Virus record (IMG/VR): IMGVR_UViG_2563366983_000010
Direction: 5' to 3' (one strand)
From: a virus
Lineage: Duplodnaviria > Heunggongvirae > Uroviricota > Caudoviricetes
Length of the DNA stretch: 33,981 nucleotides
Shown: positions 20,242-33,981 of the stretch, piece after piece
How the letters are laid out: every line of letters starts with the position of its first letter
How positions within the stretch are numbered: the stretch's first letter is position 1
Translations under genes and position numbers: made by a program
Notes under the pieces: model-generated
Databases searched by the model: none
Told to the model about the DNA's origin: nothing
Seen by the model: only the letters and a program-made list of their open reading frames with translations

Positions 20242-21805
20242 GGCCGGTGTCCCCCAGCGCACGCGCCTTAAAGCACACCTCCGCCAGTTGCAGGGCAAAG
20301 TCGTCCGCGTTCAGCGTTTCCTGAAGCTCAGGCAGACGTTTCAGAAAGTCATCAAAACTGTCGCATTCCTGCGCCAGTGTCAGCACCGGGTTTGTGAACG
20401 CCTCGCCGGTTTTCTGCCAGTCACGCAGGGCATCATCCACCATCTGAGCCAGTTCGTCGGGGTGTTCCCGGTTCAGGGCGACGCGCTCGCGGTTCATCGC
20501 CATTTCACCTGACATTCCGGCAGAAACCGGATGCAGAACATCAGCCCCTTCGTCCGGTTCCGCCAGGCCGAACCGATCCCGCAGCTCCGATTCCTGAACC
20601 CGCATCCCCCGGTCAATCAGTGGCACCAGAGCATCAGTCAGCGCCTTCAGATCTTCGGCTTCACTGATACGCAGAACAACACGGGGATAGTGCGCCTGTG
20701 GCCCGTAGTTGGCCTCGATGTAGGGACGCACCAGATATTCATTCAGCGTGTTAGCCAGCTGTCGCGCGTCCCAGCGCACAATGTCCATGCGCACCTGATT
20801 GTGCACGTCCGCCTGTGAACGCGAACTGCCGTTATCTGTGGTCATGGTCTGCCCCAGTACGGCTTTACTGATTTGCGCATCGCACCATTCCGCCATTTCA
20901 CGGAACAGTGCGCCGCCGTTATTCCGGCTGGCGGTTTCCTTCATTTCCAGTTGCATGGACTGCGGAATGGCACACCCGGCATCCGAGGCAATGGAAGCAA
21001 TCGCATCAATCAGCACGCGGATTTGCTCCTCCGTGGCGTTGGGGCCGTATTTCCCCACTGTAACCGGAATGCCGAACTTTTCCGCAAATGCCCACCAGTC
21101 GCGCACGGTAAAGGATTTCAGCATGTACATCACCGCCACCAGACGGGCCAGACCGTTACGCAGCGGCAGACCGGATTTCAGGCGCGGCTGGTGAACAATG
21201 AATTTTCCCGGTGTCAGCGGTACGCCATCCACCGGTTCATCGTCAGTCAGCAGGCGGAACTGGCGCAGCGTGGTTTTTTCGGCTTTCAGAAAACGGGGAT
21301 CAACCCACTCATAATCACGGGGAATCCAGTGGTTTTTGTGGGTATTCCAGAGGATTTCACAGACCGCCACGCCTTTTCCCAGCCCGTCGAGCAAATCAAA
21401 CATCAGTTCGGGGATTTGCGGGGCTTCCATCAGTGCACGGATGGCGTCCGCCAGTTGCACGTCAGCATCGTCATCACTGGCGGCCACCACCACCGGTTCG
21501 ATACCCGCCACCGTCAGCTTGCGGGTGCGCAGCACCGAGGCGTAATGCAAATCACGTTCTTCCATCTCTTCGGCAAGGATAAAAAAATCACGCGTGATGC
21601 CGTCGGCGGCATTGCGCAGAATGCCTGCCAGCCTGCCGGGATTCAGCCCGGAAGCAATGCTGATGCCCGGCGAGGCCGAACGTACGCCAGCCTGACGCGG
21701 GCGGGCCTGTGCTTCATTGAGCGTCTCTTTTTTCAGGGTGTCGCCCTCACCGGTTGTCGGGTTCAGCAAATGACGAACATCCCCGGTCTGTTGTTTCAGG
21801 TTCAC
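20234..21805 (-). CDS. Portal protein (Mu H / gp29-like)
   Basis: 523 aa directly downstream of the terminase large subunit; apparent GTG start overlapping the terminase stop. Confidence 0.75.
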   Translation of the reverse strand: MNLKQQTGDVRHLLNPTTGEGDTLKKETLNEAQARPRQAGVRSASPGISIASGLNPGRLAGILRNAADGITRDFFILAEEMEERDLHYASVLRTRKLTVAGIEPVVVAASDDDADVQLADAIRALMEAPQIPELMFDLLDGLGKGVAVCEILWNTHKNHWIPRDYEWVDPRFLKAEKTTLRQFRLLTDDEPVDGVPLTPGKFIVHQPRLKSGLPLRNGLARLVAVMYMLKSFTVRDWWAFAEKFGIPVTVGKYGPNATEEQIRVLIDAIASIASDAGCAIPQSMQLEMKETASRNNGGALFREMAEWCDAQISKAVLGQTMTTDNGSSRSQADVHNQVRMDIVRWDARQLANTLNEYLVRPYIEANYGPQAHYPRVVLRISEAEDLKALTDALVPLIDRGMRVQESELRDRFGLAEPDEGADVLHPVSAGMSGEMAMNRERVALNREHPDELAQMVDDALRDWQKTGEAFTNPVLTLAQECDSFDDFLKRLPELQETLNADDFALQLAEVCFKARALGDTGHA

Positions 21806-23337
21806 AGTAAACCTCCCTCATTTTTCAGGCCGCGTGTCAGTTTCATCTGGCGGCGCGTGTTGCCTTCTTCCGGTTTCGCCGGGCGGTTCAGGCGGTGCAG
21901 CTCGTAACGGTGGCAGTCATCCTTGCTGGCAAGGAAGCCCAGGAAAATGGCCACAGCGGCATCGCCGTGACGCTTGCGGCCATCGCTACCTTTAGTACGG
22001 GCATCGTCAATGCCGGGAACACCACGCAGTAACTGAATGGCCCCGAGGTCATTGATCACGTCTTCATGCTTCGGAAGGATCAGCTCATCATCTTCAAACG
22101 CTGCACGGAAACGGGGCATGTTTTCGCGGTAGAACGCCACGGACAGCATCACCTGTTCCACCTCATCGCCGTACCGCTCCGCCGCCTGTTCTGCCAGATA
22201 CTGACCATTCCCCCGTGCATCCATTTTGATACCGTCACGACGGGGCAGACGATCGCAAAGCCAGAACAGCACCTGCTCCTGCTGTTTAAACGGCACATTG
22301 CCAAGCTCAACCAGGAACGGCACCTCGCGGGTGGTGTCATCGTTCACCGTCACAGGGGCCAGTACGGTCAGGTCCCCCGAACGCGCAAAGTCTTCCCCCA
22401 GACAGTGGCGCAGGTTCTTCGGGAGTTTTTCCAGCTCGGGGCGCACCACCGTTTCCAGCCATTCCCGGATATCTGCCCGGCGCTGGCTTTCCGTCAGTGC
22501 GTTAAATTCCGGTGTGCCGGTAAAGCGCAACACTTTCCCGGTGCCACGGGCCGCACGTTCACGCAGTGAGCGGGGGATATACGTGCCGCCGCCGTTTTTC
22601 GGGACGCAGTAGTATTCCTCCAGGGCGTCTTCGCGGGTGGCGGTATTTCTCAGCAGACCTTCTTTCCATTCCGCCTCGGCCTCCGGTGACCACACCATGC
22701 CGCGCACCTGACAGATACGCCGGTACAGCCCGTCATTGCAGGCATCATCCAGCGTGATGGTGTGAATACGGTAATCTTTTTTGCCTGCGCGGCTTTCCTG
22801 AATCAGCTGGTTAAACGGGTTGTCCACGCCGTCATGGGTGGAAATAAGGCGAACCTTACCGCCCCACGTGGTCAGTGGTGTGACCGCCTTGAGTACCTCA
22901 TCCAGTTGTTCATGAAACGCCGCTTCGTCGATGGTGACATTCCCCTGCATCCCGCGAATGTTGCCCGGATTACTGGACAGCGCCTTGACCTTAAATCCGC
23001 TGGCGAAGTACACGACGAACGTCAGAATGTCCTTGTCTTCGTCGGTGATCACTTCCTCGCGGATTTCTTCTGCTGCCGCATTAAACGCTTTCGCCCACAT
23101 CGCCACGGCGTCGATAAATTCGCGGGCCATCTCCTTATTCGAACCGATATAAAAGTGATCGCTCCCGCCGTTTTCCTTCTTCAGTGATGCGGTCAGTGCC
23201 GCATCTGCCGCTTCTGCCCAGGTTAAACCGGTACGGCGGGATTTCTCGGCGATTTTCAGTTTTGAATCATCCGCAACCCAGCGTTTCTGATACGGCAGCA
23301 GAACATCGGATTCACTGAACGTGTTCATCTGTGTCAT
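21802..23337 (-). CDS. Terminase large subunit (Mu gp28-like)
   Basis: 511 aa; size and position upstream of the portal gene. Confidence 0.8.
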   Translation of the reverse strand: MTQMNTFSESDVLLPYQKRWVADDSKLKIAEKSRRTGLTWAEAADAALTASLKKENGGSDHFYIGSNKEMAREFIDAVAMWAKAFNAAAEEIREEVITDEDKDILTFVVYFASGFKVKALSSNPGNIRGMQGNVTIDEAAFHEQLDEVLKAVTPLTTWGGKVRLISTHDGVDNPFNQLIQESRAGKKDYRIHTITLDDACNDGLYRRICQVRGMVWSPEAEAEWKEGLLRNTATREDALEEYYCVPKNGGGTYIPRSLRERAARGTGKVLRFTGTPEFNALTESQRRADIREWLETVVRPELEKLPKNLRHCLGEDFARSGDLTVLAPVTVNDDTTREVPFLVELGNVPFKQQEQVLFWLCDRLPRRDGIKMDARGNGQYLAEQAAERYGDEVEQVMLSVAFYRENMPRFRAAFEDDELILPKHEDVINDLGAIQLLRGVPGIDDARTKGSDGRKRHGDAAVAIFLGFLASKDDCHRYELHRLNRPAKPEEGNTRRQMKLTRGLKNEGGLL

Positions 23338-23915
23338 GCGCTAATCCCCAGAATGTCCCGTTTGATGGTGTCAGCCGCACCGCCTGACAGACCGCCCGTT
23401 CTGACCAGCTCTTCGGTTTTTTCTGCCATCTCCTGCGCAAACGCATCGCGGATCGCTTTCTCGCGTTTATGGCTGGTCATGGCGGCCGCTTCCAGACGCT
23501 GGGCAACCAGCGCCAGTTGGCCCAGCGCCTTCGGTGCAACGGGCTTGTCGTCTTCTGCCATCGACATGGACGTTTCAAAGGCCAGCGTTTTTACAAACTC
23601 CATCAGCAGCTTGCCGACGTCTGACGTCGGCGCGGAACCCAGCTTTGCCGCCCAGACCTCGGCCATCTCGCGGGAGGCGCGGATTTTGGCCCCGACTTTT
23701 TCCATACGGCTGGCATAGCGGTTTAAGCCCGTCCGGCTTAACTGCATCTCTTCCGGCAGGTTGTGTTCGTCAATCAGGGCGTTGATGGCTTCGCGGATTT
23801 CTTCCTGCGTGTGCCGCTTTTCCCGCAGCATCTGATGTAACTGCTCCCGGATGCTGTCCGGGAGTAAATCCACTTTGGAAAGACGGCCACGGGTGGGGCG
23901 TTGTTCATTTTCCAT
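23334..23915 (-). CDS. Terminase small subunit-like protein (Mu gp27-like)
   Basis: 193 aa, ATGA-coupled to the terminase large subunit. Confidence 0.55.
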   Translation of the reverse strand: MENEQRPTRGRLSKVDLLPDSIREQLHQMLREKRHTQEEIREAINALIDEHNLPEEMQLSRTGLNRYASRMEKVGAKIRASREMAEVWAAKLGSAPTSDVGKLLMEFVKTLAFETSMSMAEDDKPVAPKALGQLALVAQRLEAAAMTSHKREKAIRDAFAQEMAEKTEELVRTGGLSGGAADTIKRDILGISA

Positions 23916-24192
23916 CTTCAGACCTCTGCGTTTTCAGACCGGCGTATATTTCTTCACGAACGGACTGAATATCCTTACTTAACAGCTTCCACAGCCGCGC
24001 ACATGCCGGTGATGATCGCAGGGCGCGTTTCATGGGGGTATCCGGTGCATCCGGGTTCCAGGGCTTTCCTGTCTGTTTTTCGTATGCACGGACAATGGCG
24101 TTTTGCTCAATATCTGCCAGCACAAGGCAGTACGCCAGTTGCCGCACGACGGCCCGTTCTCCGCGACTTAACGGCTTCAGTTTTCGGGCCAT
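23905..24192 (-). CDS. Hypothetical late protein (95 aa)
   Basis: ORF in the late operon with overlapping start/stop to neighbours. Confidence 0.4.
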   Translation of the reverse strand: MARKLKPLSRGERAVVRQLAYCLVLADIEQNAIVRAYEKQTGKPWNPDAPDTPMKRALRSSPACARLWKLLSKDIQSVREEIYAGLKTQRSEDGK

Positions 24193-24194
24193 GC

Positions 24195-24488
24195 TCAGTC
24201 CCTCGCACGGGGTTTTTTAACGCCCGGAACGCTGGACAGGCCGTTTGCCACATCCTCGCCGCTGCCGGTGATTTCAGCCACGTAACAGCCGCCCACATCA
24301 GACAGACGAACCAGCCCCTGCTCGCGAAGCCATGCAAGCTGAGTGCGCACCACATCACGGGATACCTTATGACCGTAAGCCTGAAGGCAGGTCTGCAACA
24401 CGGATTCATTCGCGCTGTCGCCACAGTCCAGCAGGGAACGCAGCAACACAAGACGACGGTCTTCAGTGAGGATCTCTTTCATCGCCAT
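24195..24488 (-). CDS. Hypothetical late protein, possible winged-helix fold (97 aa)
   Basis: Segment RTQLAWLREQGLVRL is winged-helix-like; function unknown. Confidence 0.4.
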   Translation of the reverse strand: MAMKEILTEDRRLVLLRSLLDCGDSANESVLQTCLQAYGHKVSRDVVRTQLAWLREQGLVRLSDVGGCYVAEITGSGEDVANGLSSVPGVKKPRARD

Positions 24489-24793
24489 TAATTTTTTTCC
24501 TTTAACTCGTTCTCTAATAACAAATCGCTGATGCGGGATACCTGGCGGATGGATGGCCCCAGTTCTTTGATTTCTCCCCGCAGATTGCTGATATCCAGTT
24601 GCAGGCGGTGGAACTCATCACGGTCGGGTAAATGGTGTACCTGGCTTTCCATCACCGACACGCGGGAACGGAGTGAATCAAACTCTTCACGTTTGACGTA
24701 GGTTTTCGCCAGAATCAGCTGAAGCAGGTTTATTCCTGTCATCAGCAATGCCCACAGAATGGGCCAGTTGGCTCTGATCATTTCCCAGGACAC
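24488..24793 (-). CDS. Membrane-anchored coiled-coil protein (i-spanin-like or lysis accessory)
   Basis: 101 aa; N-terminal hydrophobic segment (WPILWALLMTGINLLQLIL) followed by a charged helical region. Apparent GTG start, with an alternative ATG at 24781. Confidence 0.45.
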   Translation of the reverse strand: MSWEMIRANWPILWALLMTGINLLQLILAKTYVKREEFDSLRSRVSVMESQVHHLPDRDEFHRLQLDISNLRGEIKELGPSIRQVSRISDLLLENELKEKN

Positions 24794-25005
24794 GTTTTCC
24801 TCCTGCGTTCCCGCATCTGCTGACAGTCAATACAGGTCACCACATCCGGCAGCGCCGCAAGGCGCTGTGCCGGAATAACGTTCCCGCAGTCATTGCAGAA
24901 GCCCCGGCTGTGGGGCGTTTCTTTTGTCCGTGTTTGCCAGGCTTTAACGACGCTCTGACGCTCGTTCAGAACCACTTCACTGATGCGATCGATTTCGTCG
25001 GTCAT
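24778..25005 (-). CDS. TraR/DksA-family C4 zinc-finger protein
   Basis: 75 aa with CNDCGNVIP...CIDCQ spacing typical of TraR/DksA zinc ribbons; ATGA-coupled to the upstream gene. Confidence 0.6.
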   Translation of the reverse strand: MTDEIDRISEVVLNERQSVVKAWQTRTKETPHSRGFCNDCGNVIPAQRLAALPDVVTCIDCQQMRERRRKTCPGK

Positions 25006-25610
25006 TTCAGCCCCGCAGACATTTTGTGACGGCTTGATTTGCTGTAACGGGCAAAGCCGTCAAGGGTTCTTACACCGAGATAGCCCAGCGCCGGGGTAAG
25101 CAACATCAGCGTGATATCCCAGTCCGGTGATGGCATATGCAGCGTGATACCTCTGGCACCGGCAATGGCTCCGGCAATCTGGCCGCAGGAGAGCAACAGC
25201 ACATAGGCCAGACTGCTGTAACAGGAAAGGCGGGCCAGCAGCGGGCGTGTCTGGCGCACATAGCTGTCCGTGGCGTTGTCACCATTGCGGATGGTTTCCT
25301 GCTGTTCGTGGTGTGCGGCCTGCTGGTCAGCCAGCACCAGCTTCTGCCGTTCCACCTCCAGCTGTTGCAGCTGAACTTTCAGGGTTTCCAGCTGCATCAG
25401 TTGCTCCGGTGACAGCATCACCAGTTTTTGTTCCAGAATGCGTTGCTGTTCAGCCACCGGCAGGCTTTCCCGGACGCTTTCCACCATACCGGCCACCGAG
25501 TCAGCAGCGGCAGATGTGCTGCCACCAAACCAGCGCCCGACGGAACGAATCAGCCCCGGCCCGGCTTTCAGCAGAACAGAGGCGATGCCTGAAAGGGTTA
25601 ACGGATCCAC
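25002..25610 (-). CDS. Coiled-coil protein with C-terminal transmembrane segments (lysis-associated?)
   Basis: Start placed at the GTG at 25608-25610, preceded by GGAGG at 6-nt spacing. Gln/Leu-rich helical region, then hydrophobic segments (LAYVLLLSCGQIAGAIAGA and ITLMLLTPALGYLGV). Confidence 0.4.
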   Translation of the reverse strand: MDPLTLSGIASVLLKAGPGLIRSVGRWFGGSTSAAADSVAGMVESVRESLPVAEQQRILEQKLVMLSPEQLMQLETLKVQLQQLEVERQKLVLADQQAAHHEQQETIRNGDNATDSYVRQTRPLLARLSCYSSLAYVLLLSCGQIAGAIAGARGITLHMPSPDWDITLMLLTPALGYLGVRTLDGFARYSKSSRHKMSAGLK

Positions 25611-26023
25611 GGGAAACCTCCATACAGATAACGCTGAAGACAGAGCAGACCGCCGCAACAACCACCACACAGCCAGAACACCGGATGCACCGGTGACATC
25701 ATCATCAGCGTGCTGAAGACGCAGCAGAAATATCCCAGCGCCCAGACCACCCATGACCACACGATAATGTGGCGACCAAAAGCCCGGTAACGGACCTCAG
25801 GCAGCAGGCGAAATGGCACATTCCCGAGGCTTGCGCTGTATGAAAACAACACCACCCCGGCAAAGGACAACAACATCAACACGAACGATCGCCAGCCACA
25901 TAACATGCTGATGATGAACATGCAGAGTGTCAGTCCGGCCAGCGGCCATGGGGTTCTCATCAGTCGGGAACAAAGCAGCCAGTCACACAGTTTTAAAATT
26001 TTGTTCATTACCTTTTTCCACAT
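25598..26023 (-). CDS. Polytopic Cys-rich membrane protein (holin candidate or membrane moron)
   Basis: Start at Met58 of ORF 25598..26194 (MWKKVMNKILKL...), 141 aa with about four hydrophobic segments and many Cys. Confidence 0.4.
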   Translation of the reverse strand: MWKKVMNKILKLCDWLLCSRLMRTPWPLAGLTLCMFIISMLCGWRSFVLMLLSFAGVVLFSYSASLGNVPFRLLPEVRYRAFGRHIIVWSWVVWALGYFCCVFSTLMMMSPVHPVFWLCGGCCGGLLCLQRYLYGGFPWIR

Positions 26024-26234
26024 TGAATTTTTCCCTGTACTTCTGGCACTGCCAGAAAATGTCCCGTGTATCCACGGAGTTCCAGCCACGCATGTAGTAG
26101 CTGGCGTGTGTGCCGTCATGGCCGGTATAGTCCAGCGGTTTCGGAGGCGGGCCTCCGGCCATGCGGTGTAAAACCTCCTGACGCAGGCGGTCACGCCGCC
26201 CGGCTTTCAGGGAGGCGTCCCAGCCTTTGCCCAT
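25983..26234 (-). CDS. Hypothetical hydrophilic protein (83 aa)
   Basis: ATG one nt after the endolysin stop, with GGGGG RBS; overlaps the start of the membrane-protein gene in another frame. Confidence 0.3.
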   Translation of the reverse strand: MGKGWDASLKAGRRDRLRQEVLHRMAGGPPPKPLDYTGHDGTHASYYMRGWNSVDTRDIFWQCQKYREKFNVEKGNEQNFKTV

Positions 26235-26235
26235 G

Positions 26236-26823
26236 TCACCCCCGCGTGGTGGACGGCGCGTTGTCGATGATTTCCAGACAGGCGTCGGTCAGTTTTTCCA
26301 TGCGGTTAAACCAGCCATTCAGGTATTTGCCCTGGGCGGGTTTGGATTTGATGATTTCGGCATAAAAGCGGGAACGACGGACAATGCAGCGGGTCAGCAA
26401 CCAGTCCGGGGTGGACAGGCTCACGGCCTTACGGGTACGCGGGCCGATGATGCCGTCAGCATCCACATCAGTGGCTTCCTGCAAAATTTTGATAGCTTTT
26501 TTAACGCCATGCTGAACCGCCGCATCGAACACAAACATCGCCACGCCATCAGGCCACTGGTCACATCCGGCAGGCAGCCAGTAATCGCGCCAGTAAATCT
26601 GCGCAACCTGTTCGCGGGTTAAATCCTTAATGCGGGTGTCGGGTTTACCATCGCCGTTGACATCGGTTTTGCCGTCAATCACACCGTCGCGGCGGTCAGA
26701 AATGCCGTATTTGGTTTCGCCGCCACGGTCTGTGGGGTCATTGACATAGACGCCTTCGATATCAGGACGCAGAATAAAATTCAGCGCATGTTCAAAGGCC
26801 GGAGAGAATTTTTGATTTTCCAT
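26236..26823 (-). CDS. Endolysin, GH108-like lysozyme domain with C-terminal peptidoglycan-binding domain
   Basis: N-terminal EGVYVNDPTDRGGETKYGIS motif typical of glycoside hydrolase family 108; C-terminal DGIIGPRTRKAV motif typical of PG_binding_3. No signal peptide or SAR segment. Confidence 0.75.
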   Translation of the reverse strand: MENQKFSPAFEHALNFILRPDIEGVYVNDPTDRGGETKYGISDRRDGVIDGKTDVNGDGKPDTRIKDLTREQVAQIYWRDYWLPAGCDQWPDGVAMFVFDAAVQHGVKKAIKILQEATDVDADGIIGPRTRKAVSLSTPDWLLTRCIVRRSRFYAEIIKSKPAQGKYLNGWFNRMEKLTDACLEIIDNAPSTTRG

Positions 26824-26878
26824 AAAAGCACCTGTGAAGCAGAGTTAAACGTGGTCTGCTTCATAGTGCCGGAGGCAC

Positions 26879-26904
26879 AAAAAAAGCCGGATTTACCGGC
26901 TTCA
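26879..26904 (-). terminator. Intrinsic-terminator-like hairpin plus U-run; copy 2 of the duplicated element
   Basis: Identical 26 bp to 19313-19338; lies 20 nt after the stop of the 159-aa secreted-protein gene and 55 nt before the endolysin ATG. Confidence 0.55.
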
Positions 26905-26923
26905 TTGAATTAAGGGAAGATAA

Positions 26924-27403
26924 CTACTCATCTCCTTTGATGGAGCAATCTATTACCATATCGTTACCCATCTTGAGAAATTTGGTTTGCATGAGAAAAC
27001 CCTGTATCACGTCAGTTAACCCATACCCTTCAACTTTTGTAGCTGAAACTACCATGTCAATAATTCGTTTCTGCTGCTTCTCTGTTAGTTCACCAATTGC
27101 TGACTCTGCAACCCGCGAGCATGCTACAAAGGAAGACAACACACCTGAAGGATTGTTTTCAAAATCCTTTACAGTCGTCCTTGAGCTGACGACTTTATTA
27201 TTGATCGTAAATACCCCGAATTTGCTGTGAGCAGTTTCAGTTCCACCGTTCTTAATAGAATCGCCTCCCTTAAGAGGCATCCAGCTATTTAGTGCAATGA
27301 AATCTTTTTCTGTCAGACGTTTTTTGATGACATCTTCAGCTGGCAACTTTGCCGCATTAGCGCAAAATACGCTCAGTAAAAGTATAAGAGGAAAGTATTT
27401 CAT
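26924..27403 (-). CDS. Secreted/periplasmic protein with cleavable signal peptide, unknown function (159 aa)
   Basis: N-terminus MKYFPLILLLSVFCANA-AKLP is a classic Sec signal peptide. ATG overlaps the stop of the Mor-family gene (ATGA); AT-rich relative to neighbours; followed by the terminator hairpin. Confidence 0.6.
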   Translation of the reverse strand: MKYFPLILLLSVFCANAAKLPAEDVIKKRLTEKDFIALNSWMPLKGGDSIKNGGTETAHSKFGVFTINNKVVSSRTTVKDFENNPSGVLSSFVACSRVAESAIGELTEKQQKRIIDMVVSATKVEGYGLTDVIQGFLMQTKFLKMGNDMVIDCSIKGDE

Positions 27404-27810
27404 GACTCATCCTTAAACAGTTGCATTTGATATTTTCCACGCTCCAGCCTTCGCATTCTTTTGATAGCTTGATATACCGTTTTGTATGTCACTTTGTAAC
27501 GCTGCACCAGTTCCGCTACGTTTTTCCCATCAAAATCACGCCAGATGCGCATGTCTCTGATAAGATTTTCCAGTATTTTCCCTTTAGGAACATATACCTG
27601 AATCCCACCGATATGATTACAAATCGCCACTACCAACTCAAGGGAATAGACCGGGTTAACCCCAAGCCTTATCAGTTCCTGTCGCAACAGAGCATTCAGC
27701 TCTGAAAGTAGCGCCGGATAAACATATTTTTCCTGATAATCGTGAAGATATTCCAGAACGGTGTCGTCCCGGAAGTCTTCGAATAAATCCTGCTCTTTCA
27801 TCTGTTTCAT
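27400..27810 (-). CDS. mor: Mor/C-family transcription activator (middle/late gene activator)
   Basis: 136 aa with C-terminal helix-turn-helix (NVAELVQRYKVTYKTVYQAIKRMRRL); ATGA-coupled to gemA as mor is in Mu. Whether it acts as Mor, C, or both cannot be decided from sequence. Confidence 0.7.
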   Translation of the reverse strand: MKQMKEQDLFEDFRDDTVLEYLHDYQEKYVYPALLSELNALLRQELIRLGVNPVYSLELVVAICNHIGGIQVYVPKGKILENLIRDMRIWRDFDGKNVAELVQRYKVTYKTVYQAIKRMRRLERGKYQMQLFKDES

Positions 27811-28358
27811 ACAGCAATTCTCCCGCTGTTTCGTGCGCGGGCATACGCACTGGTCAGTGCATCATAGCCGCGCAGCTCCCGACCGGTTTCGCTCACAGGT
27901 AAAGGCACACCATGTCGGGCAAAGGCTTCACGGATGCAGCGCATATGCCACTGTTTGAGCGTTTCGAGCACAACCTGCAACGATTCCCCGTGACACCAGG
28001 CCAGTGTGGAAACCCCCTGACCGCCATTACGTCTGGCCGTCAGGCGCTCAACGTATTTGTCCAGCGCGGCGTCGCTGATATCGGAAACGAAACCATCAAG
28101 GAACATCTGCTGCCAGATTTTGTAAATCTTCTCGCGTGGTGTGACATGCCCCTTAAAGCGACGGCGGGGATGTTTTTTCTGCTTCTTAAAACCGCGCTTT
28201 TTCATGGCATCGAGCACTTGTTCCAGTTGTGCAACGGACAGCTCGCGGCAACTGGTTTTGCCCGTGCACTGCACCAGAAAAGCTCGGTAAGTGTCATCGT
28301 CGAGTTGCAACTCCCGACGGGCAACATGAATTAATTTAATCAGGGATGTGCGGCTCAT
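27807..28358 (-). CDS. gemA: GemA-like early protein (Mu gp16 family)
   Basis: Start at Met16 of ORF 27807..28403 (MSRTSLIKLIHVARRELQLDDDTYRAF), AAGGAG RBS; sits directly upstream of the Mor-family gene. Confidence 0.65.
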   Translation of the reverse strand: MSRTSLIKLIHVARRELQLDDDTYRAFLVQCTGKTSCRELSVAQLEQVLDAMKKRGFKKQKKHPRRRFKGHVTPREKIYKIWQQMFLDGFVSDISDAALDKYVERLTARRNGGQGVSTLAWCHGESLQVVLETLKQWHMRCIREAFARHGVPLPVSETGRELRGYDALTSAYARARNSGRIAV

Positions 28359-30923: not shown

Positions 30924-31862
30924 TTACGTGCGCAGCAGGGTTGAAATATCAACGTCCAGGTCTAATTCACGGAAAGCCTGACGCAGATAATTTTCATTAA
31001 CACGATCGCCTTTACCGTAGGCTGTCATGGCCGCAAGGCGCAGCGAGTGATTCAGGATACGAAGCGCACCTGGTTTTTGTGCAATCTGTTGTAATAATTC
31101 CCGCTCGTTTTCGCCGGTAATTTGCCAGGCATCCGCAATGGCTTTTACATCGTCAATTTTGGTTTTATTGATTGCCGTCCGTTTGGCAATACGGGAAAAC
31201 AGGCGGGCAAATTCAACCGTTCTGTTACCACCGGTCATGTTTGAATAAACGCGGTGATTCCCCATCAGAACAAGACCAATACGGGCGGACTCCTGTAACA
31301 GGCGGAGTTCTTCCAGAACCTCAGCGCCAAGATGATCAGCTTCGTCGATAATGACCAGCCCCTGCGTACCTTCAAGACGGCGTCTCAAAGCGCGGGAGAG
31401 TGGCCCCTTACGGCGCGGTGCGTCATTCATTCCCAGTTCATAAGCCAGTTCAGTCAGGCATTCCAGAACACTGGCACAGGATGGGGTAATGGTGATCATC
31501 CAGACATTGTTATTGGTGCGACGAAATTCGCGGGCCGCTTCAGTTTTTCCCACTCCTGGATTACCACAGATAACAGAAATACTTTCAGTCAGGCTGGCAA
31601 AACGCATACTTGTCCAGATTTGGCGGACCGTTCTGGTTTCCACAAAACGCGGGGGTTCTGGCAGTTCTGCGGCGCGGTGATAGTTCTCCAGCCAGCGTTC
31701 AAGAGACTGCGCGACACGTTCATTGTCGCCGTTGTACTTGTCATTCACGAATGCGCTTAACGTTCCTGCGGCCACCCCAGACTCGCGGGCGATTTGTGCA
31801 TAAGTTGTTTTTTCATTTTCTACAAGCGTGCGCAGTCCTGCACGAATATCGGAAATATTCAT
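30924..31862 (-). CDS. B: Transposition ATPase / target DNA activator B (MuB, AAA+)
   Basis: 312 aa; [17 protein letters not shown]-terminus with HTH, Walker A (GNPGVGKTE) and Walker B ([10 protein letters not shown]); closely matches Mu B as recalled. Confidence 0.9.
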
Positions 31863-31899: not shown

Positions 31900-33981
31900 T
31901 TAAATGGCTTTTTTACGTCTGTTCTGTTCCAGAATATCCAGTGAATTATTCAGATATTCGTCGCGGTCGCTTTCATATTCATCGTCCGGTTCATCTGCCA
32001 GCACTGGCACGACTTTCTCCACTGGTCTGTAGACGTTGCTGAACAACCCGTTGCCTGTAACAGGAGCTGGCAGTGTTCGGGTATTCTCTGCCTCGGCCAG
32101 TCTGATTTTTTCCTCTCCGCGCTGACGCATCCCTTTGATACGCTGCTGGCGCTGATGGTATTCCGCAGTGACCGGGAATGCCTGCTGTTTATTGCCATCC
32201 CAGACAGCCTCACAGATATAGGAACCGTCCATGCGGCGGATAATTACTTTTGTTGCATCATGAATATCGTAATTCACCAGCACCTTATTACCGTGCTCAT
32301 ATTCCAGGTCAGTTGAATAATAAATATTATTAAACAGCCTGACTTCACAGCGGTTGACTGTACGTTCAATCTGGGGCATAAACATTTCACGCAGTTCAAG
32401 GTCGGACAACCATTCGATTTCCGTCGCTTCTTTTTCCAGTTTGTAGCGTCGGAACTGCGCCGGGGTGTAATGTTCACCGTTTCCACGTAGTGGTAGCGAA
32501 CTATGCGGACGGTTGTTGTACCATTCCACACCAGCTTCAATAGCAGCAATAAGTTCATTCCATGACGGCAGGTTTTTTAAAGCCTGCCGTTGTTTTTCAG
32601 TCAGCTCCCGTCCTTTGTTTGCCGCATTTGTTGCAGATATCAGAGCCTTTGTCGTCCGGCGAACCGTTCCACGGTCGGCACCGGTGCCATAATACGTGGC
32701 AAACTGGCGTGATATGCGCATAGCCAGAGTACGGTTCAGACGCTCTATAATCCCTCGCCCTTGCGGGTTTTCCGGTATACCAAGACGGTGATCAATTCCA
32801 AGACGCGGTAAGACACCCGTAATATCAGCATCGAACGTGTTATTGGTTTCACCGCCGCCATTATCTGAATAATAGATATACGGTTTGCCGTGATTTTTTA
32901 TTCCGTGGCGTAACGCATCAGCAACAGCAACCACACTTTCAGAAAGTGCCAGACTCCAGCCCACAATAAAGCGGCAACTGCCGTCCATGATAAAGGTGAC
33001 TTCTGGGGAAAATGGATTGCCGTGATCAGGATGTGCCACTTTCATCTTCATGCCGTGACCATCACCAATCCAGGCATAATTTACCGGTAAAGATAACCAG
33101 TCCCGACGCACGAAGCCTTCATACTGCCGGAACTCGCTGCCTGTAACGCGCCCACGTTGTTTCACAACAACCGGGAGTTTGTTCATGGCATAGCAAACCT
33201 GATCATACGACGGCAGTGCTGCACACATCGCAGGATTGTCCTGATGCACTTCATACCATTCCGCAGCAAAATCATCATAAGCCTCTCGTATTCCGCACCC
33301 GTTCGGACGGCGGTAAAAGCGAAGAAACTCTGGTAACCAGCGAATCTGGTCTGGTTTTATGGGCTGACGTTTGCCTGGTGCCAGCATGATCAGACGTTCA
33401 GCCGGAGTGGTTGCTTTTTTAAAATCAGCAATCCAGCGTTTCAGTGATATTTCACTAAGGGAGCGCAAAGAACCTTTTTTCGCGTTCGCAGTTGCAACGG
33501 TTTCCACCAGGTGTGCCGGTAACTCACCGTTTTGAGCCTGTTTCACAAACTCACGGATAGCGGCGGCCTGGCTGATTCCTGGTAGTTCACAAACGCGCAA
33601 AACTTCGCTGACAATCGCAATCCGGGCATCCGCTGTTTCTTTTTGCGTAGCGGTTAACGTTCCGAGTTTCTGCTCAAACAGCGCAGGACATTTGCGGTAA
33701 ACCGCAATTTTGCCGTCTTCACGTTTTTTTAAACGCGGAGATTCAGGTTCTTTTGCCTCAGTTGCTGGCTGATTCATTAACGCCTTAATCTGGCGAGCCT
33801 GTAACGCCTTACGCGCCACATCAGGCAAACAGTCGACATGGAACTCAAAAGCCTTTGTCCCTGCACGCTTACGCATCATTCCTTCTGATTCGCCGCAATA
33901 ACGGCGCAATGCTTCCCGAATTCCTTTAATTGTTTTTGGTAATCCTGGTACACCGACCAGCTCTTTGGCGAGAACAAACAT
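31900..33981 (-). CDS. A: DDE transposase A (MuA family), apparently complete
   Basis: 693 aa. N-terminal GLPKT motif as in MuA domain I; WIGDGHG (DDE Asp region); C-terminal DDEYESDRDEYLNNSLDILEQNRRKKAI matches the MuA C-terminal tail. ATG at 33979-33981 is the last codon of the window. Confidence 0.85.
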   Translation of the reverse strand: MFVLAKELVGVPGLPKTIKGIREALRRYCGESEGMMRKRAGTKAFEFHVDCLPDVARKALQARQIKALMNQPATEAKEPESPRLKKREDGKIAVYRKCPALFEQKLGTLTATQKETADARIAIVSEVLRVCELPGISQAAAIREFVKQAQNGELPAHLVETVATANAKKGSLRSLSEISLKRWIADFKKATTPAERLIMLAPGKRQPIKPDQIRWLPEFLRFYRRPNGCGIREAYDDFAAEWYEVHQDNPAMCAALPSYDQVCYAMNKLPVVVKQRGRVTGSEFRQYEGFVRRDWLSLPVNYAWIGDGHGMKMKVAHPDHGNPFSPEVTFIMDGSCRFIVGWSLALSESVVAVADALRHGIKNHGKPYIYYSDNGGGETNNTFDADITGVLPRLGIDHRLGIPENPQGRGIIERLNRTLAMRISRQFATYYGTGADRGTVRRTTKALISATNAANKGRELTEKQRQALKNLPSWNELIAAIEAGVEWYNNRPHSSLPLRGNGEHYTPAQFRRYKLEKEATEIEWLSDLELREMFMPQIERTVNRCEVRLFNNIYYSTDLEYEHGNKVLVNYDIHDATKVIIRRMDGSYICEAVWDGNKQQAFPVTAEYHQRQQRIKGMRQRGEEKIRLAEAENTRTLPAPVTGNGLFSNVYRPVEKVVPVLADEPDDEYESDRDEYLNNSLDILEQNRRKKAI

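Follow-up and report, generated by a model that had tools for sequence, protein, structure and literature searches.

A Mu-like prophage of Escherichia coli combines a soluble GH108 endolysin with a probable PF11351-related holin and a polymorphic four-transmembrane gene

Results

The lysis cassette and its endolysin

The stretch of DNA analysed here (IMG/VR virus record IMGVR_UViG_2563366983_000010; 33,981 nucleotides, in the following called the window) represents with its 34 kb almost the whole of a Mu-like transposable prophage of Escherichia coli, encoded on the minus strand. Its late operon contains, in this order, the genes of a GH108 endolysin, of the small protein orf83, of a protein with four transmembrane segments (four-TM), of a protein of 202 amino acids (aa), of a DksA/TraR zinc finger protein, and of a DUF2730 protein (Table 1). 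An earlier note on this DNA, made from the letters alone, had flagged the region 25598-26234, which covers orf83 and the four-TM gene, and had recognised no canonical holin for the export of the endolysin. The hydrophilic 83-aa open reading frame (ORF) that it placed behind the endolysin is present and begins after a gap of 1 nt, and the junctions that follow are overlaps of 26-41, 13, 4, and 16 nt. The two further neighbours named there, a coiled-coil protein with C-terminal hydrophobic segments and a 101-aa N-anchored protein, are both found as well, and correspond to the 202-aa and the DUF2730 protein, respectively. The 13-nt overlap joins the stop of the four-TM gene to the start of the 202-aa gene, and the GGAGG sequence ahead of the GTG start codon of the latter lies inside the four-TM gene.

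Table 1. Features of the lysis cassette and its surroundings in the window.
Feature	Position	Strand	Evidence
Soluble endolysin, 195 aa, GH108 muramidase and PG_binding_3	26236..26823	(-)	Pfam PF05838 1e-23, PF09374 8.6e-17
orf83, 83-aa hydrophilic, basic, putatively cytoplasmic protein with predicted three-helix fold	25983..26234	(-)	PF26867, synteny, model
Predicted four-TM inner-membrane protein, Cys-rich allele	25598..26023	(-)	Hydropathy, charges, phrog_12596
Probable holin, 202 aa, GTG start, GGAGG 7 nt upstream	25002..25610	(-)	PF11351 relationship, model, context
DksA/TraR C4 zinc finger protein, 75 aa	24778..25005	(-)	PF01258 7e-11, TIGR02419 4.8e-17
DUF2730 protein, 101 aa (family of the Mu gp25 'releasin')	24488..24793	(-)	PF10805 E 1.3e-30
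DUF3486 small terminase	23334-23915		
Large terminase	21802-23337		
Terminator-like hairpin after orf159, 8 bp stem and T-run	26883..26903	(-)	Terminator scan
orf159, signal-peptide protein	26924-27403	(-)	
Mor-family activator	27400-27810		
312-aa ORF at the right end	30924-31862		
693-aa ORF at the right end	31900-33981		

The endolysin matches phrog_315 (endolysin, E 4e-55) and, below the cut-off of that model, the NCBIfam family NF040573 'holin-associated N-acetylmuramidase' (1.1e-20). None of its 19-residue windows reaches a Kyte-Doolittle (KD) value of 1.5. The protein has therefore no transmembrane, signal, or signal-anchor-release (SAR) segment and is soluble. Catalytic domain, PG_binding_3 domain, and the lack of all three kinds of segments are what is expected of a soluble GH108 endolysin, and the claim of the earlier note that this enzyme depends on a holin holds in so far as it needs a membrane lesion. 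The GH108 domain contains an Asp/Gly-rich insertion (DRRDGVIDGKTDVNGDGKPDTRIKD, residues ~43-66), which looks like a calcium-binding loop. Homologues from Klebsiella, Serratia, and Brenneria share this insertion, and the Shewanella enzyme lacks it.

A divergent relative of the PF11351 holins

The 202-aa protein matches a single Pfam family, PF11351 (GTA_holin_3TM, TC 1.E.54), which is the family of rcc00556 of the Rhodobacter capsulatus gene transfer agent (RcGTA). The earlier note was right in that the cassette encodes no textbook small holin of classes I to III. Homology of an ORF to a characterised holin class, which that note had named as the observation that would speak against it, is thus essentially what was found, in an ORF outside the region it had flagged. 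An exhaustive phmmer search with the 202-aa protein collected 134 representative clusters with proteins of ~170-200 aa. PF11351 is matched at E<=0.01 by 44 of the 101 full-length relatives, with a best value of 1.7e-9, and no other family is matched by more than one of them. The homologues from Klebsiella, Shewanella, and Janthinobacterium stay below the PF11351 threshold (17.8-19 bits) like the window protein. The AlphaFold model of the 202-aa protein is all-helical (helices 3-28, 30-46, 52-63, 68-111, 116-152, and 164-177) and has a predicted local distance difference test (pLDDT) value of 91.6. The top Foldseek match of this model in the BFVD is A0A6J5PC24, 'Holin of 3TMs, for gene-transfer release' (E 1.3e-7, probability 1.00, 31% identity over 194 columns). 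The TM-scores are low (0.44-0.47), which is to be expected when helical proteins are flexible. A search of the PDB with the profile of the family returned coiled-coil noise only. The ratio of nonsynonymous to synonymous substitutions (dN/dS) of the gene is 0.03-0.19.

The protein begins with a helical/coiled-coil domain of ~125 aa. Two clearly hydrophobic segments follow (128-151 and 164-180), and the C-terminal tail is basic, with six Lys or Arg residues. The N-terminal helix 3-28 is weakly hydrophobic and amphipathic (mean KD ~1.5, hydrophobic moment 0.26-0.61). The N-side of the first segment is basic (R119, R122, R127), and the two segments are connected by a neutral loop of 12 residues. 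From these charges the protein is predicted to form a hairpin in the inner membrane with both N- and C-terminus inside, in which the ~125-aa domain would be cytoplasmic. The motif Q.TIR.GD...D.YVR.TRP..AR.S....Y, which characterises the family, is located just ahead of the first segment.

The gene neighbourhood is informative. In the window two small genes separate the GH108 endolysin from the 202-aa gene downstream. Among the more distant homologues, from outside the Mu-like phages, those in Sulfurovum, Pseudidiomarina, and Sessilibacter (loci L032, L033, and L042) are directly adjacent to GH108 endolysins. A GH24 enzyme is adjacent in a Francisella metagenome-assembled genome (MAG; L035) and is separated by an 84-aa ORF in a Vampirovibrionales MAG (L039). 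In Haematospirillum (L041) the neighbour is a Peptidase_M15_3 protein, and weaker M15_4 matches are found next to the homologues in Idiomarina and a Saprospiraceae MAG (L031, L038). Vibrio phage Martha 12B12 has a DUF5675 protein and Janthinobacterium phage Donnerlittchen a CwlK-like endopeptidase instead. The endolysins beside the homologues thus belong to at least four enzyme families, and such a steady pairing with endolysins that replace one another is what is classically seen for partners of the holin type. Taken together, family relationship, model, and context suggest that the missing holin is most likely the 202-aa protein.

Two other assignments of the 202-aa gene were rejected. An 'LLSC' sequence inside the gene could have been the start of an internal lipoprotein, but its Cys is not conserved. 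A spanin-like protein could have been expected from the position of the gene in comparison to Mu and Donnerlittchen, but both ends of the 202-aa protein are basic and, according to the positive-inside rule, cytoplasmic. The homologue in E. coli TD225-C4 (L002:2882-3490, WP_032239570.1) carries the name 'twin-arginine translocase TatA/TatE family subunit' in the annotation of the Prokaryotic Genome Annotation Pipeline (PGAP). Because the window protein has no match to the NCBIfam TatA/TatE families, this name is probably spurious.

The four-TM gene is a hypervariable allelic block

The four-TM protein comprises 141 aa if started from the ATG at 26023, 136 aa from the ATG at 26008, and 120 aa in the PHROG model. 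PGAP uses the ATG at 26008 in the >97% identical copies of loci L001 and L003, and the corresponding start in the L002 allele. The earlier note described a Cys-rich polytopic protein of 141 aa with about 15 Cys residues. The four segments and the GGCCGG tract (LCGGCCGGLLCL) are indeed there, but only 10 Cys residues (7%) are counted. Hydropathy and charges predict that both termini are inside, with a basic central cytoplasmic loop (GNVPFRLLPEVRYRAFGRH) and periplasmic loops of just 2 and 9 residues. Three alleles contain 10, 4, and 1 Cys residues, respectively, and no Cys column is conserved. Thus, the Cys-richness is a peculiarity of one allele and not a conserved feature of the four-TM protein, and a metal or disulfide site was rejected because of the missing conserved Cys column and the short periplasmic loops. 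The alleles have in common the length, the four segments, a G(R/W)xAF motif, the basic loop LGN(L/V)P(Y/F)RL..P, and SWx(V/I)W. They also share a C-terminal WIR, which is explained by the 13-nt overlap with the start of the 202-aa gene (xTGGATCCGxTGA/TAA).

The gene is found in the Enterobacterales clade only. In the cassettes of Vibrio, Shewanella, Aeromonas, and Rheinheimera orf83 runs straight into the 202-aa gene. All nine Enterobacterales loci that keep the slot have a four-TM ORF in it, and these loci belong to seven genera, Raoultella, Klebsiella, Kluyvera, Pluralibacter, Serratia, Brenneria, and Trabulsiella. At the sequence level the relatives of the window protein are restricted to four clusters, all from E. 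coli, and other four-TM ORFs occupy the slot in, for example, Serratia and Brenneria. In comparison to the Klebsiella phage the four-TM protein is 28% identical, against 79% for orf83 and 71% for the 202-aa protein. More generally, the protein identities between four-TM alleles are 20-40% while those of the neighbouring genes are 70-80%. Within E. coli, two alleles of equal length exist; 9 genomes have the Cys-rich allele of the window and 37 have the L002 type. Between these the dS is 1.6 and the dN 0.58 (dN/dS ~0.36), in contrast to a dS of 0.16 in the flanking 202-aa gene. The block that differs from L002 extends over ~26040-25610 and has sharp edges, with ~50% DNA identity inside and mostly 85-100% outside. 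The four-TM gene is therefore a hypervariable, lineage-restricted allelic block. In the PHROGs the protein matches phrog_12596 and phrog_2121, both of 'unknown function', and the L002 allele has a sub-threshold match to the NCBIfam ClsA family (19.2 bits, cut-off 240).

orf83 accompanies the 202-aa gene in Mu-like cassettes

In Mu-like cassettes orf83 is a conserved partner gene, located between the endolysin and the 202-aa gene, with a range that extends from E. coli to Vibrio and Shewanella. The motif MGKxW..GR..RL..E...GT..S.F..GW.SV is conserved over this range, and the dN/dS is 0.04-0.27. The protein contains neither transmembrane nor signal segments, and its AlphaFold model is a three-helix bundle (pLDDT 79.5). 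The assignment to PF26867 comes from a precomputed annotation column, in which all homologues carry this accession. The scans with NCBIfam, PADLOC, and a copy of Pfam that lacks this accession were empty, and PHROGs gave phrog_2121 only ('unknown function'). No BFVD structure matches better than E 0.7, and no sequence relative was found in the PDB. One Rheinheimera locus (L026) and the non-Mu contexts lack orf83, which is thus an accessory of the Mu-like version of the cassette. The mosaic block of the four-TM gene reaches into orf83 and alters its C-terminal tail (83 aa in the window protein compared to 72-75 aa in most homologues). Profile positions 3-85 of phrog_2121 match orf83, positions 89-273 match the 202-aa protein, and positions 198-259 match the E. 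coli four-TM alleles. Three neighbouring genes were probably lumped together in this family because ORFs had been mis-called or concatenated. Natural fusions of orf83 and the 202-aa gene, as this profile would hint at, were not found, and the long ORFs of L030 and L006 are artefacts of ORF extension.

The DksA/TraR and DUF2730 genes

The DksA/TraR gene is conserved between the 202-aa gene and the DUF2730 gene in this type of cassette. Its product is probably regulatory and not obviously a lysis effector. The earlier note had listed the 101-aa protein among the membrane proteins that do not look like a textbook holin. The protein does have a family assignment, as it matches PF10805 with 105.9 bits (threshold 24.9) over profile positions 1-102 of 102, and is 27% identical to Mu gp25 (E 4e-12). 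It has an N-terminal transmembrane segment (10-29, predicted N-out/C-in) followed by basic residues and a putatively cytoplasmic coiled coil, which is the architecture by which this family was delimited (PMC9239132), and its gene is the fifth after the endolysin. DUF2730 is the family that frees the SAR endolysin of Mu (PMC9239132). By function a releasin is defined through its cognate SAR endolysin, which is lacking here. Because the endolysin does not have a hydrophobic N-terminus, the DUF2730 protein cannot act as a SAR releasin in this cassette. DUF2730 genes are also found paired with soluble endolysins, and for the DUF2730 proteins of these pairs the releasin models were said not to apply and the function to be untested (PMC9239132). 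Table S1 of that survey lists Vibrio phages with pairs of GH108 plus PG_binding_3 endolysins and DUF2730 proteins. These phages carry homologues of orf83 and the 202-aa protein, and the holin candidate therefore fills the gap left by the survey. In two non-Mu loci proteins of 79-90 aa (L035:3561-3833 and L039:2954-3193) have an N-terminal transmembrane segment and a coiled coil and so resemble DUF2730 proteins in architecture. They have no Pfam match and are encoded in the same cassettes as the 202-aa homologue and the GH24 lysozyme.

Genomic setting and distribution

At the right end of the window, the 693-aa and the 312-aa ORF are found where Mu has its transposases A and B. They are followed by a GemA/gp16-like gene, the Mor-family activator, the lysis genes, and the terminases, and the further large ORFs past these are presumably head and tail genes. 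The strong terminator-like hairpin splits orf159 from the endolysin, and the late operon thus appears to begin at the endolysin. The hairpin presumably marks the upstream boundary of the late lysis and head operon, whose promoter would then lie in the ~60 nt before the endolysin start. A scan for promoter-like sites found none in 24000-28000. With a GC content of 0.41 compared to ~0.55 for the cassette, a GC content at third codon positions (GC3) of 0.39, and a terminator of its own, orf159 and not the four-TM gene is the true moron-like gene of the region. Its slot between Mor and endolysin holds an unrelated 110-aa protein with three transmembrane segments in the Klebsiella phage, and unrelated signal-peptide proteins in the Shewanella and Vibrio phages.

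Of 5426 complete E. coli genomes, 50 contain the cassette with its gene order preserved, at identities of mostly 90-99% and of 60-80% in four records. PGAP labels most of its genes as 'hypothetical protein' in the E. coli copies. All cassette genes of the window are intact and under purifying selection. Some copies of the cassette are decaying, as in E. coli STEC388 (L003:1593-2189), where the GH108 endolysin has an internal stop and is labelled a pseudogene in an otherwise intact cassette. No match to the phage collection was obtained when the cassette was searched by megablast, and relatives were found by tblastn only. The genome scan with local hidden Markov models (HMMs) revealed a conserved module in Mu-like prophages, consisting of Mor, a variable gene, endolysin, orf83, the optional four-TM gene, the 202-aa gene, DksA, DUF2730, a gp26-like gene, and the small terminase TerS. 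Its hosts include the seven enterobacterial genera named above as well as Aeromonas, Rheinheimera, Vibrio, Shewanella, and Idiomarina, the last (L034) without a detectable orf83.

The spanin slot

Exactly where Mu has its spanin genes, the cassette of the window carries orf83, the four-TM gene, and the 202-aa gene. A search of the window for lipoboxes hit only an in-frame internal piece of the 202-aa gene, with the non-conserved Cys mentioned above, and one spurious 43-aa ORF. In 38 related loci (L004-L007 and L009-L042) no spanin was detected within ±4 kb of the homologue by a scan that is a regular-expression and hydropathy heuristic and not a full predictor, but that recovers Mu gp23.1 (L043:2727-3068) as control. 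Lysis without spanins is found elsewhere, for example in phiKT (cited in bioRxiv 10.1101/2024.01.23.576932).

Discussion

Comparison to known lysis systems

The cassette is of the holin-endolysin type of RcGTA and PF11351, built into a Mu-like backbone. As in the window, the RcGTA cluster has an endolysin gene beside the gene for a PF11351-type membrane protein, and both rcc00555 and rcc00556 are required for lysis and release of RcGTA (PMC5026251; see also PMC3423380). The window protein is different in that it stays below the Pfam cut-off, its helical N-terminal domain is longer, and no more than two of its segments are clearly hydrophobic. In addition, its gene is embedded in a Mu-like late operon together with orf83, DksA/TraR, DUF2730, and the four-TM gene. 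To our knowledge no spanin has been described for the RcGTA pair, and rcc00555 is presumably an enzyme of the GH108 type.

TeaA of the Vibrio phage ICP1, which its authors put into PF11351, collapses the proton-motive force and can be triggered by dinitrophenol (DNP; bioRxiv 10.1101/790493). Published support for holin activity in the family is confined to these properties of TeaA and to the genetic requirement for rcc00556. The N-terminal 'FGG...A..V...P' region of TeaA is linked to the 202-aa family by hhalign with a probability of 81%. In ICP1 the gene of the TMD-containing antiholin ArrA is directly beside the holin gene, as the four-TM gene is beside the 202-aa gene, and this arrangement would be a positional precedent for a role of holin neighbours in timing. 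At the sequence level hhalign gives a probability of 0.1% between the four-TM family and ICP1 ORF138, the neighbour of TeaA (ORF137) that is taken as the likely ArrA. Unlike the Mu-like prophage of the window, ICP1 is a large virulent myophage. Given the score below the cut-off and the weak link to TeaA, the 202-aa protein is best described as a divergent relative of PF11351 and not as a formal member.

The closest known phages with this cassette are Mu-like Vibrio myophages of the Nahant collection (for example 1.028.O._10N.286.45.B6), Vibrio phage Martha 12B12, and Shewanella MuM16-2, which all have the endolysin, an orf83 homologue, DksA, and DUF2730. Their 202-aa homologues are 39-41% identical to the window protein, and their endolysins are of the GH108 plus PG_binding_3 type, except for the DUF5675 protein of Martha. 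The Vibrio relatives (1.028.O and others, Martha) form plaques, and MuM16-2 is a prophage. In contrast to the window, they have neither a four-TM gene nor any other transmembrane protein in the cassette, orf83 abuts or overlaps the 202-aa gene, and the C-terminal segments of the 202-aa homologue are less hydrophobic. Phage Mu shares the skeleton of the operon, with late promoter, endolysin, a small protein, DUF2730, gp26-like gene, TerS, and TerL (the large terminase). It differs by its GH24 SAR endolysin gp22, the lack of a holin, and the two-component spanin gp23/gp23.1, while the window endolysin is a soluble GH108 enzyme. No similarity was detected between Mu gp24 and the DksA/TraR protein.

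Small regulators of lysis are known from other phages. In P2 the timing of lysis is influenced by LysA, a membrane protein with several transmembrane segments, and T4 RIII is a cytoplasmic antiholin of 82 aa. As a mere lead, the four-TM protein (~140 aa, polytopic, encoded in the lysis cassette) would by size and location fall into the class of LysA. With its ~80 aa orf83 has the size of RIII, and the cytoplasmic domain of the 202-aa protein could be its binding partner.

Proposed mechanism

In our opinion the best explanation at the level of the cassette, to which we assign a probability of roughly 60%, is that the 202-aa PF11351-like protein is the holin and that the region 25598-26234 encodes two accessory proteins of the lysis cassette and not the trigger. 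Late transcription would start just upstream of the endolysin and produce a translationally coupled string of genes from the endolysin to DUF2730. The GH108 muramidase would build up in the cytoplasm. The 202-aa protein would insert into the inner membrane as N-in/C-in hairpin, oligomerise, and form a lesion through which the endolysin reaches the wall. The putatively cytoplasmic orf83, whose gene is conserved beside that of the holin, and the four-TM protein, co-translated with the holin, would most likely tune its timing, as antiholins or holin partners, and the DUF2730 protein may be a further membrane-tethered accessory. That the four-TM gene is an accessory is consistent with its distribution, and an antiholin-like function is perhaps what it has, but this role is much less certain than the explanation for the cassette as a whole. 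The unconventional lysis trigger suspected in the earlier note is borne out only in part, because a relative of a characterised holin family is encoded next door and a protein of the releasin family follows.

There are several observations that speak against this explanation. The match of the 202-aa protein to PF11351 has 20.2-20.4 bits (E 8.6e-4) and does not reach the gathering threshold of 24.8, and part of it passes through the coiled coil. The alignment between TeaA and the 202-aa family extends over ~50 N-terminal columns only, and TeaA itself has no match to PF11351 by hmmscan. In the Shewanella, Vibrio, and Janthinobacterium homologues the C-terminal segments contain charged residues and have KD values below 1.5, which makes membrane insertion less certain family-wide. 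The non-Mu siphophage Donnerlittchen (L006:2208-3462) encodes a LydA-type holin (PF16083, 6e-13) and an LD-endopeptidase ahead of the homologue, and because of this coexistence the 202-aa family could have a second role, as antiholin or in a late step of lysis. Neither orf83 nor the four-TM protein shows sequence or structural similarity to anything annotated as holin or antiholin. Finally, the lipobox scan found no lipoprotein o-spanin or u-spanin in the whole window, and with no spanin the outer-membrane step is not explained. The Donnerlittchen homologue, for its part, sits in the usual position of a spanin, and no spanin is annotated there.

Alternative explanations

Several alternatives concern the four-TM gene. 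It is unlikely, but deserves consideration, that the four-TM protein, as a class-I-like holin with dual start, is the one that serves the cassette or is a second one, with the 202-aa protein as its regulator or acting in another step of lysis. The protein is small, polytopic, and highly variable, and its gene follows the endolysin in the lysis cassette as is typical for holins. The coexistence in Donnerlittchen demonstrates that the PF11351-like family tolerates another holin. In both E. coli alleles the start region has two closely spaced Met codons of the same frame, with basic residues in between (MWKKVM, and MHRM in L002:2484-2894), which recalls the dual start of lambda S107/S105. However, this dual start is missing from the Klebsiella, Serratia, and Brenneria alleles, and with an N-in topology an additional N-terminal charge would not be expected to shift the topology as it does in lambda S. 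The protein does not match any holin or antiholin family in Pfam, PHROGs, or NCBIfam. The gene is absent from the plaque-forming Vibrio relatives and from Shewanella MuM16-2, which have the same soluble GH108 endolysin, and is thus not needed for lysis with such an enzyme. In this respect the earlier note was correct in leaving the Cys-rich protein out of the essential core of the cassette. It had also considered that this gene might be a membrane-targeted moron. That the four-TM gene is non-lysis cargo in the late operon, conferring for example superinfection exclusion, seems somewhat less probable again. Its restriction to the Enterobacterales, the sharp recombination block, and the two deeply diverged alleles in E. 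coli form a pattern that is typical of diversifying or frequency-dependent selection, and to this extent the moron idea retains some appeal. It is weakened by the lack of a promoter-like site of its own and of flanking terminators, the 13-nt overlap, and the GC3 of 0.657, which is like that of the neighbours (0.62-0.66) and unlike that of the foreign orf159. The gene is not a compositional moron. There is also no PADLOC defence family for the protein, and length, four-TM architecture, and loop motif are kept across the alleles. Because the gene overlaps both orf83 and the start of the holin gene, the protein should be made only together with the late lysis proteins and not in the lysogen. More speculative, and in our view improbable, is the idea that the block of orf83, four-TM gene, and PF11351-like gene is a self-contained replacement for the spanin module of Mu. 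This would be a case of spanin-less lysis in a Gram-negative host, with the four-TM protein as an allele-specific holin partner and DUF2730 as a general lesion trigger. If true, the four-TM protein would be an antiholin or a sensor for lysis inhibition, whose polymorphism is kept by selection.

The remaining alternatives do without the 202-aa protein as holin or without functional genes in the flagged region. A holin-independent lysis driven by DUF2730 as in Mu, in which the 202-aa, the four-TM, and the 83-aa proteins are irrelevant to endolysin export, would agree with the clear family membership of the DUF2730 protein and with the placement of its gene behind the endolysin, where DUF2730 genes are located in every Mu-like phage of the survey (PMC9239132). 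It is nevertheless very unlikely. Mu gp25 acts on a membrane-tethered SAR endolysin via basic residues of its short cytoplasmic tail (PMC9239132) while the endolysin of the window has no hydrophobic N-terminus, the authors exclude releasin models for DUF2730 proteins paired with endolysins lacking a SAR segment (PMC9239132), and Mu gp25 does not show holin-like lethality upon triggering with DNP (PMC9239132). One could also suspect that the small ORFs in the region 25598-26234 are chance frames or decayed remnants, given that they overlap, that an alternative frame with GTG start extends over both of them with a length of 198 aa, and that the mixture of matches from three ORFs in phrog_2121 suggests a messy annotation. 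This is refuted by conservation and has next to no probability: dN/dS values of 0.04 for orf83 and 0.36 across the four-TM alleles indicate purifying selection, the orf83 motif is kept from E. coli to Vibrio, the four-TM ORF has constant length and architecture in the nine Enterobacterales loci, and PGAP calls both genes.

Implications for Mu-like phages

Of modest interest are the combination of DUF2730 with an endolysin that is soluble, the polymorphism of the four-TM gene, and the lack of a spanin. The consistent absence of spanins around this type of holin raises the question by which route the outer membrane is breached. The question of Chamblee et al. (PMC9239132) about DUF2730 proteins that are paired with soluble endolysins becomes testable in an E. 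coli cassette. This cassette is annotated almost wholly as 'hypothetical protein' in ~1% of the complete E. coli genomes and in many prophages of Klebsiella, Raoultella, Serratia, Aeromonas, and Vibrio, and the 202-aa gene as a relative of PF11351-type holins provides these Mu-like phages with a plausible lysis pathway.

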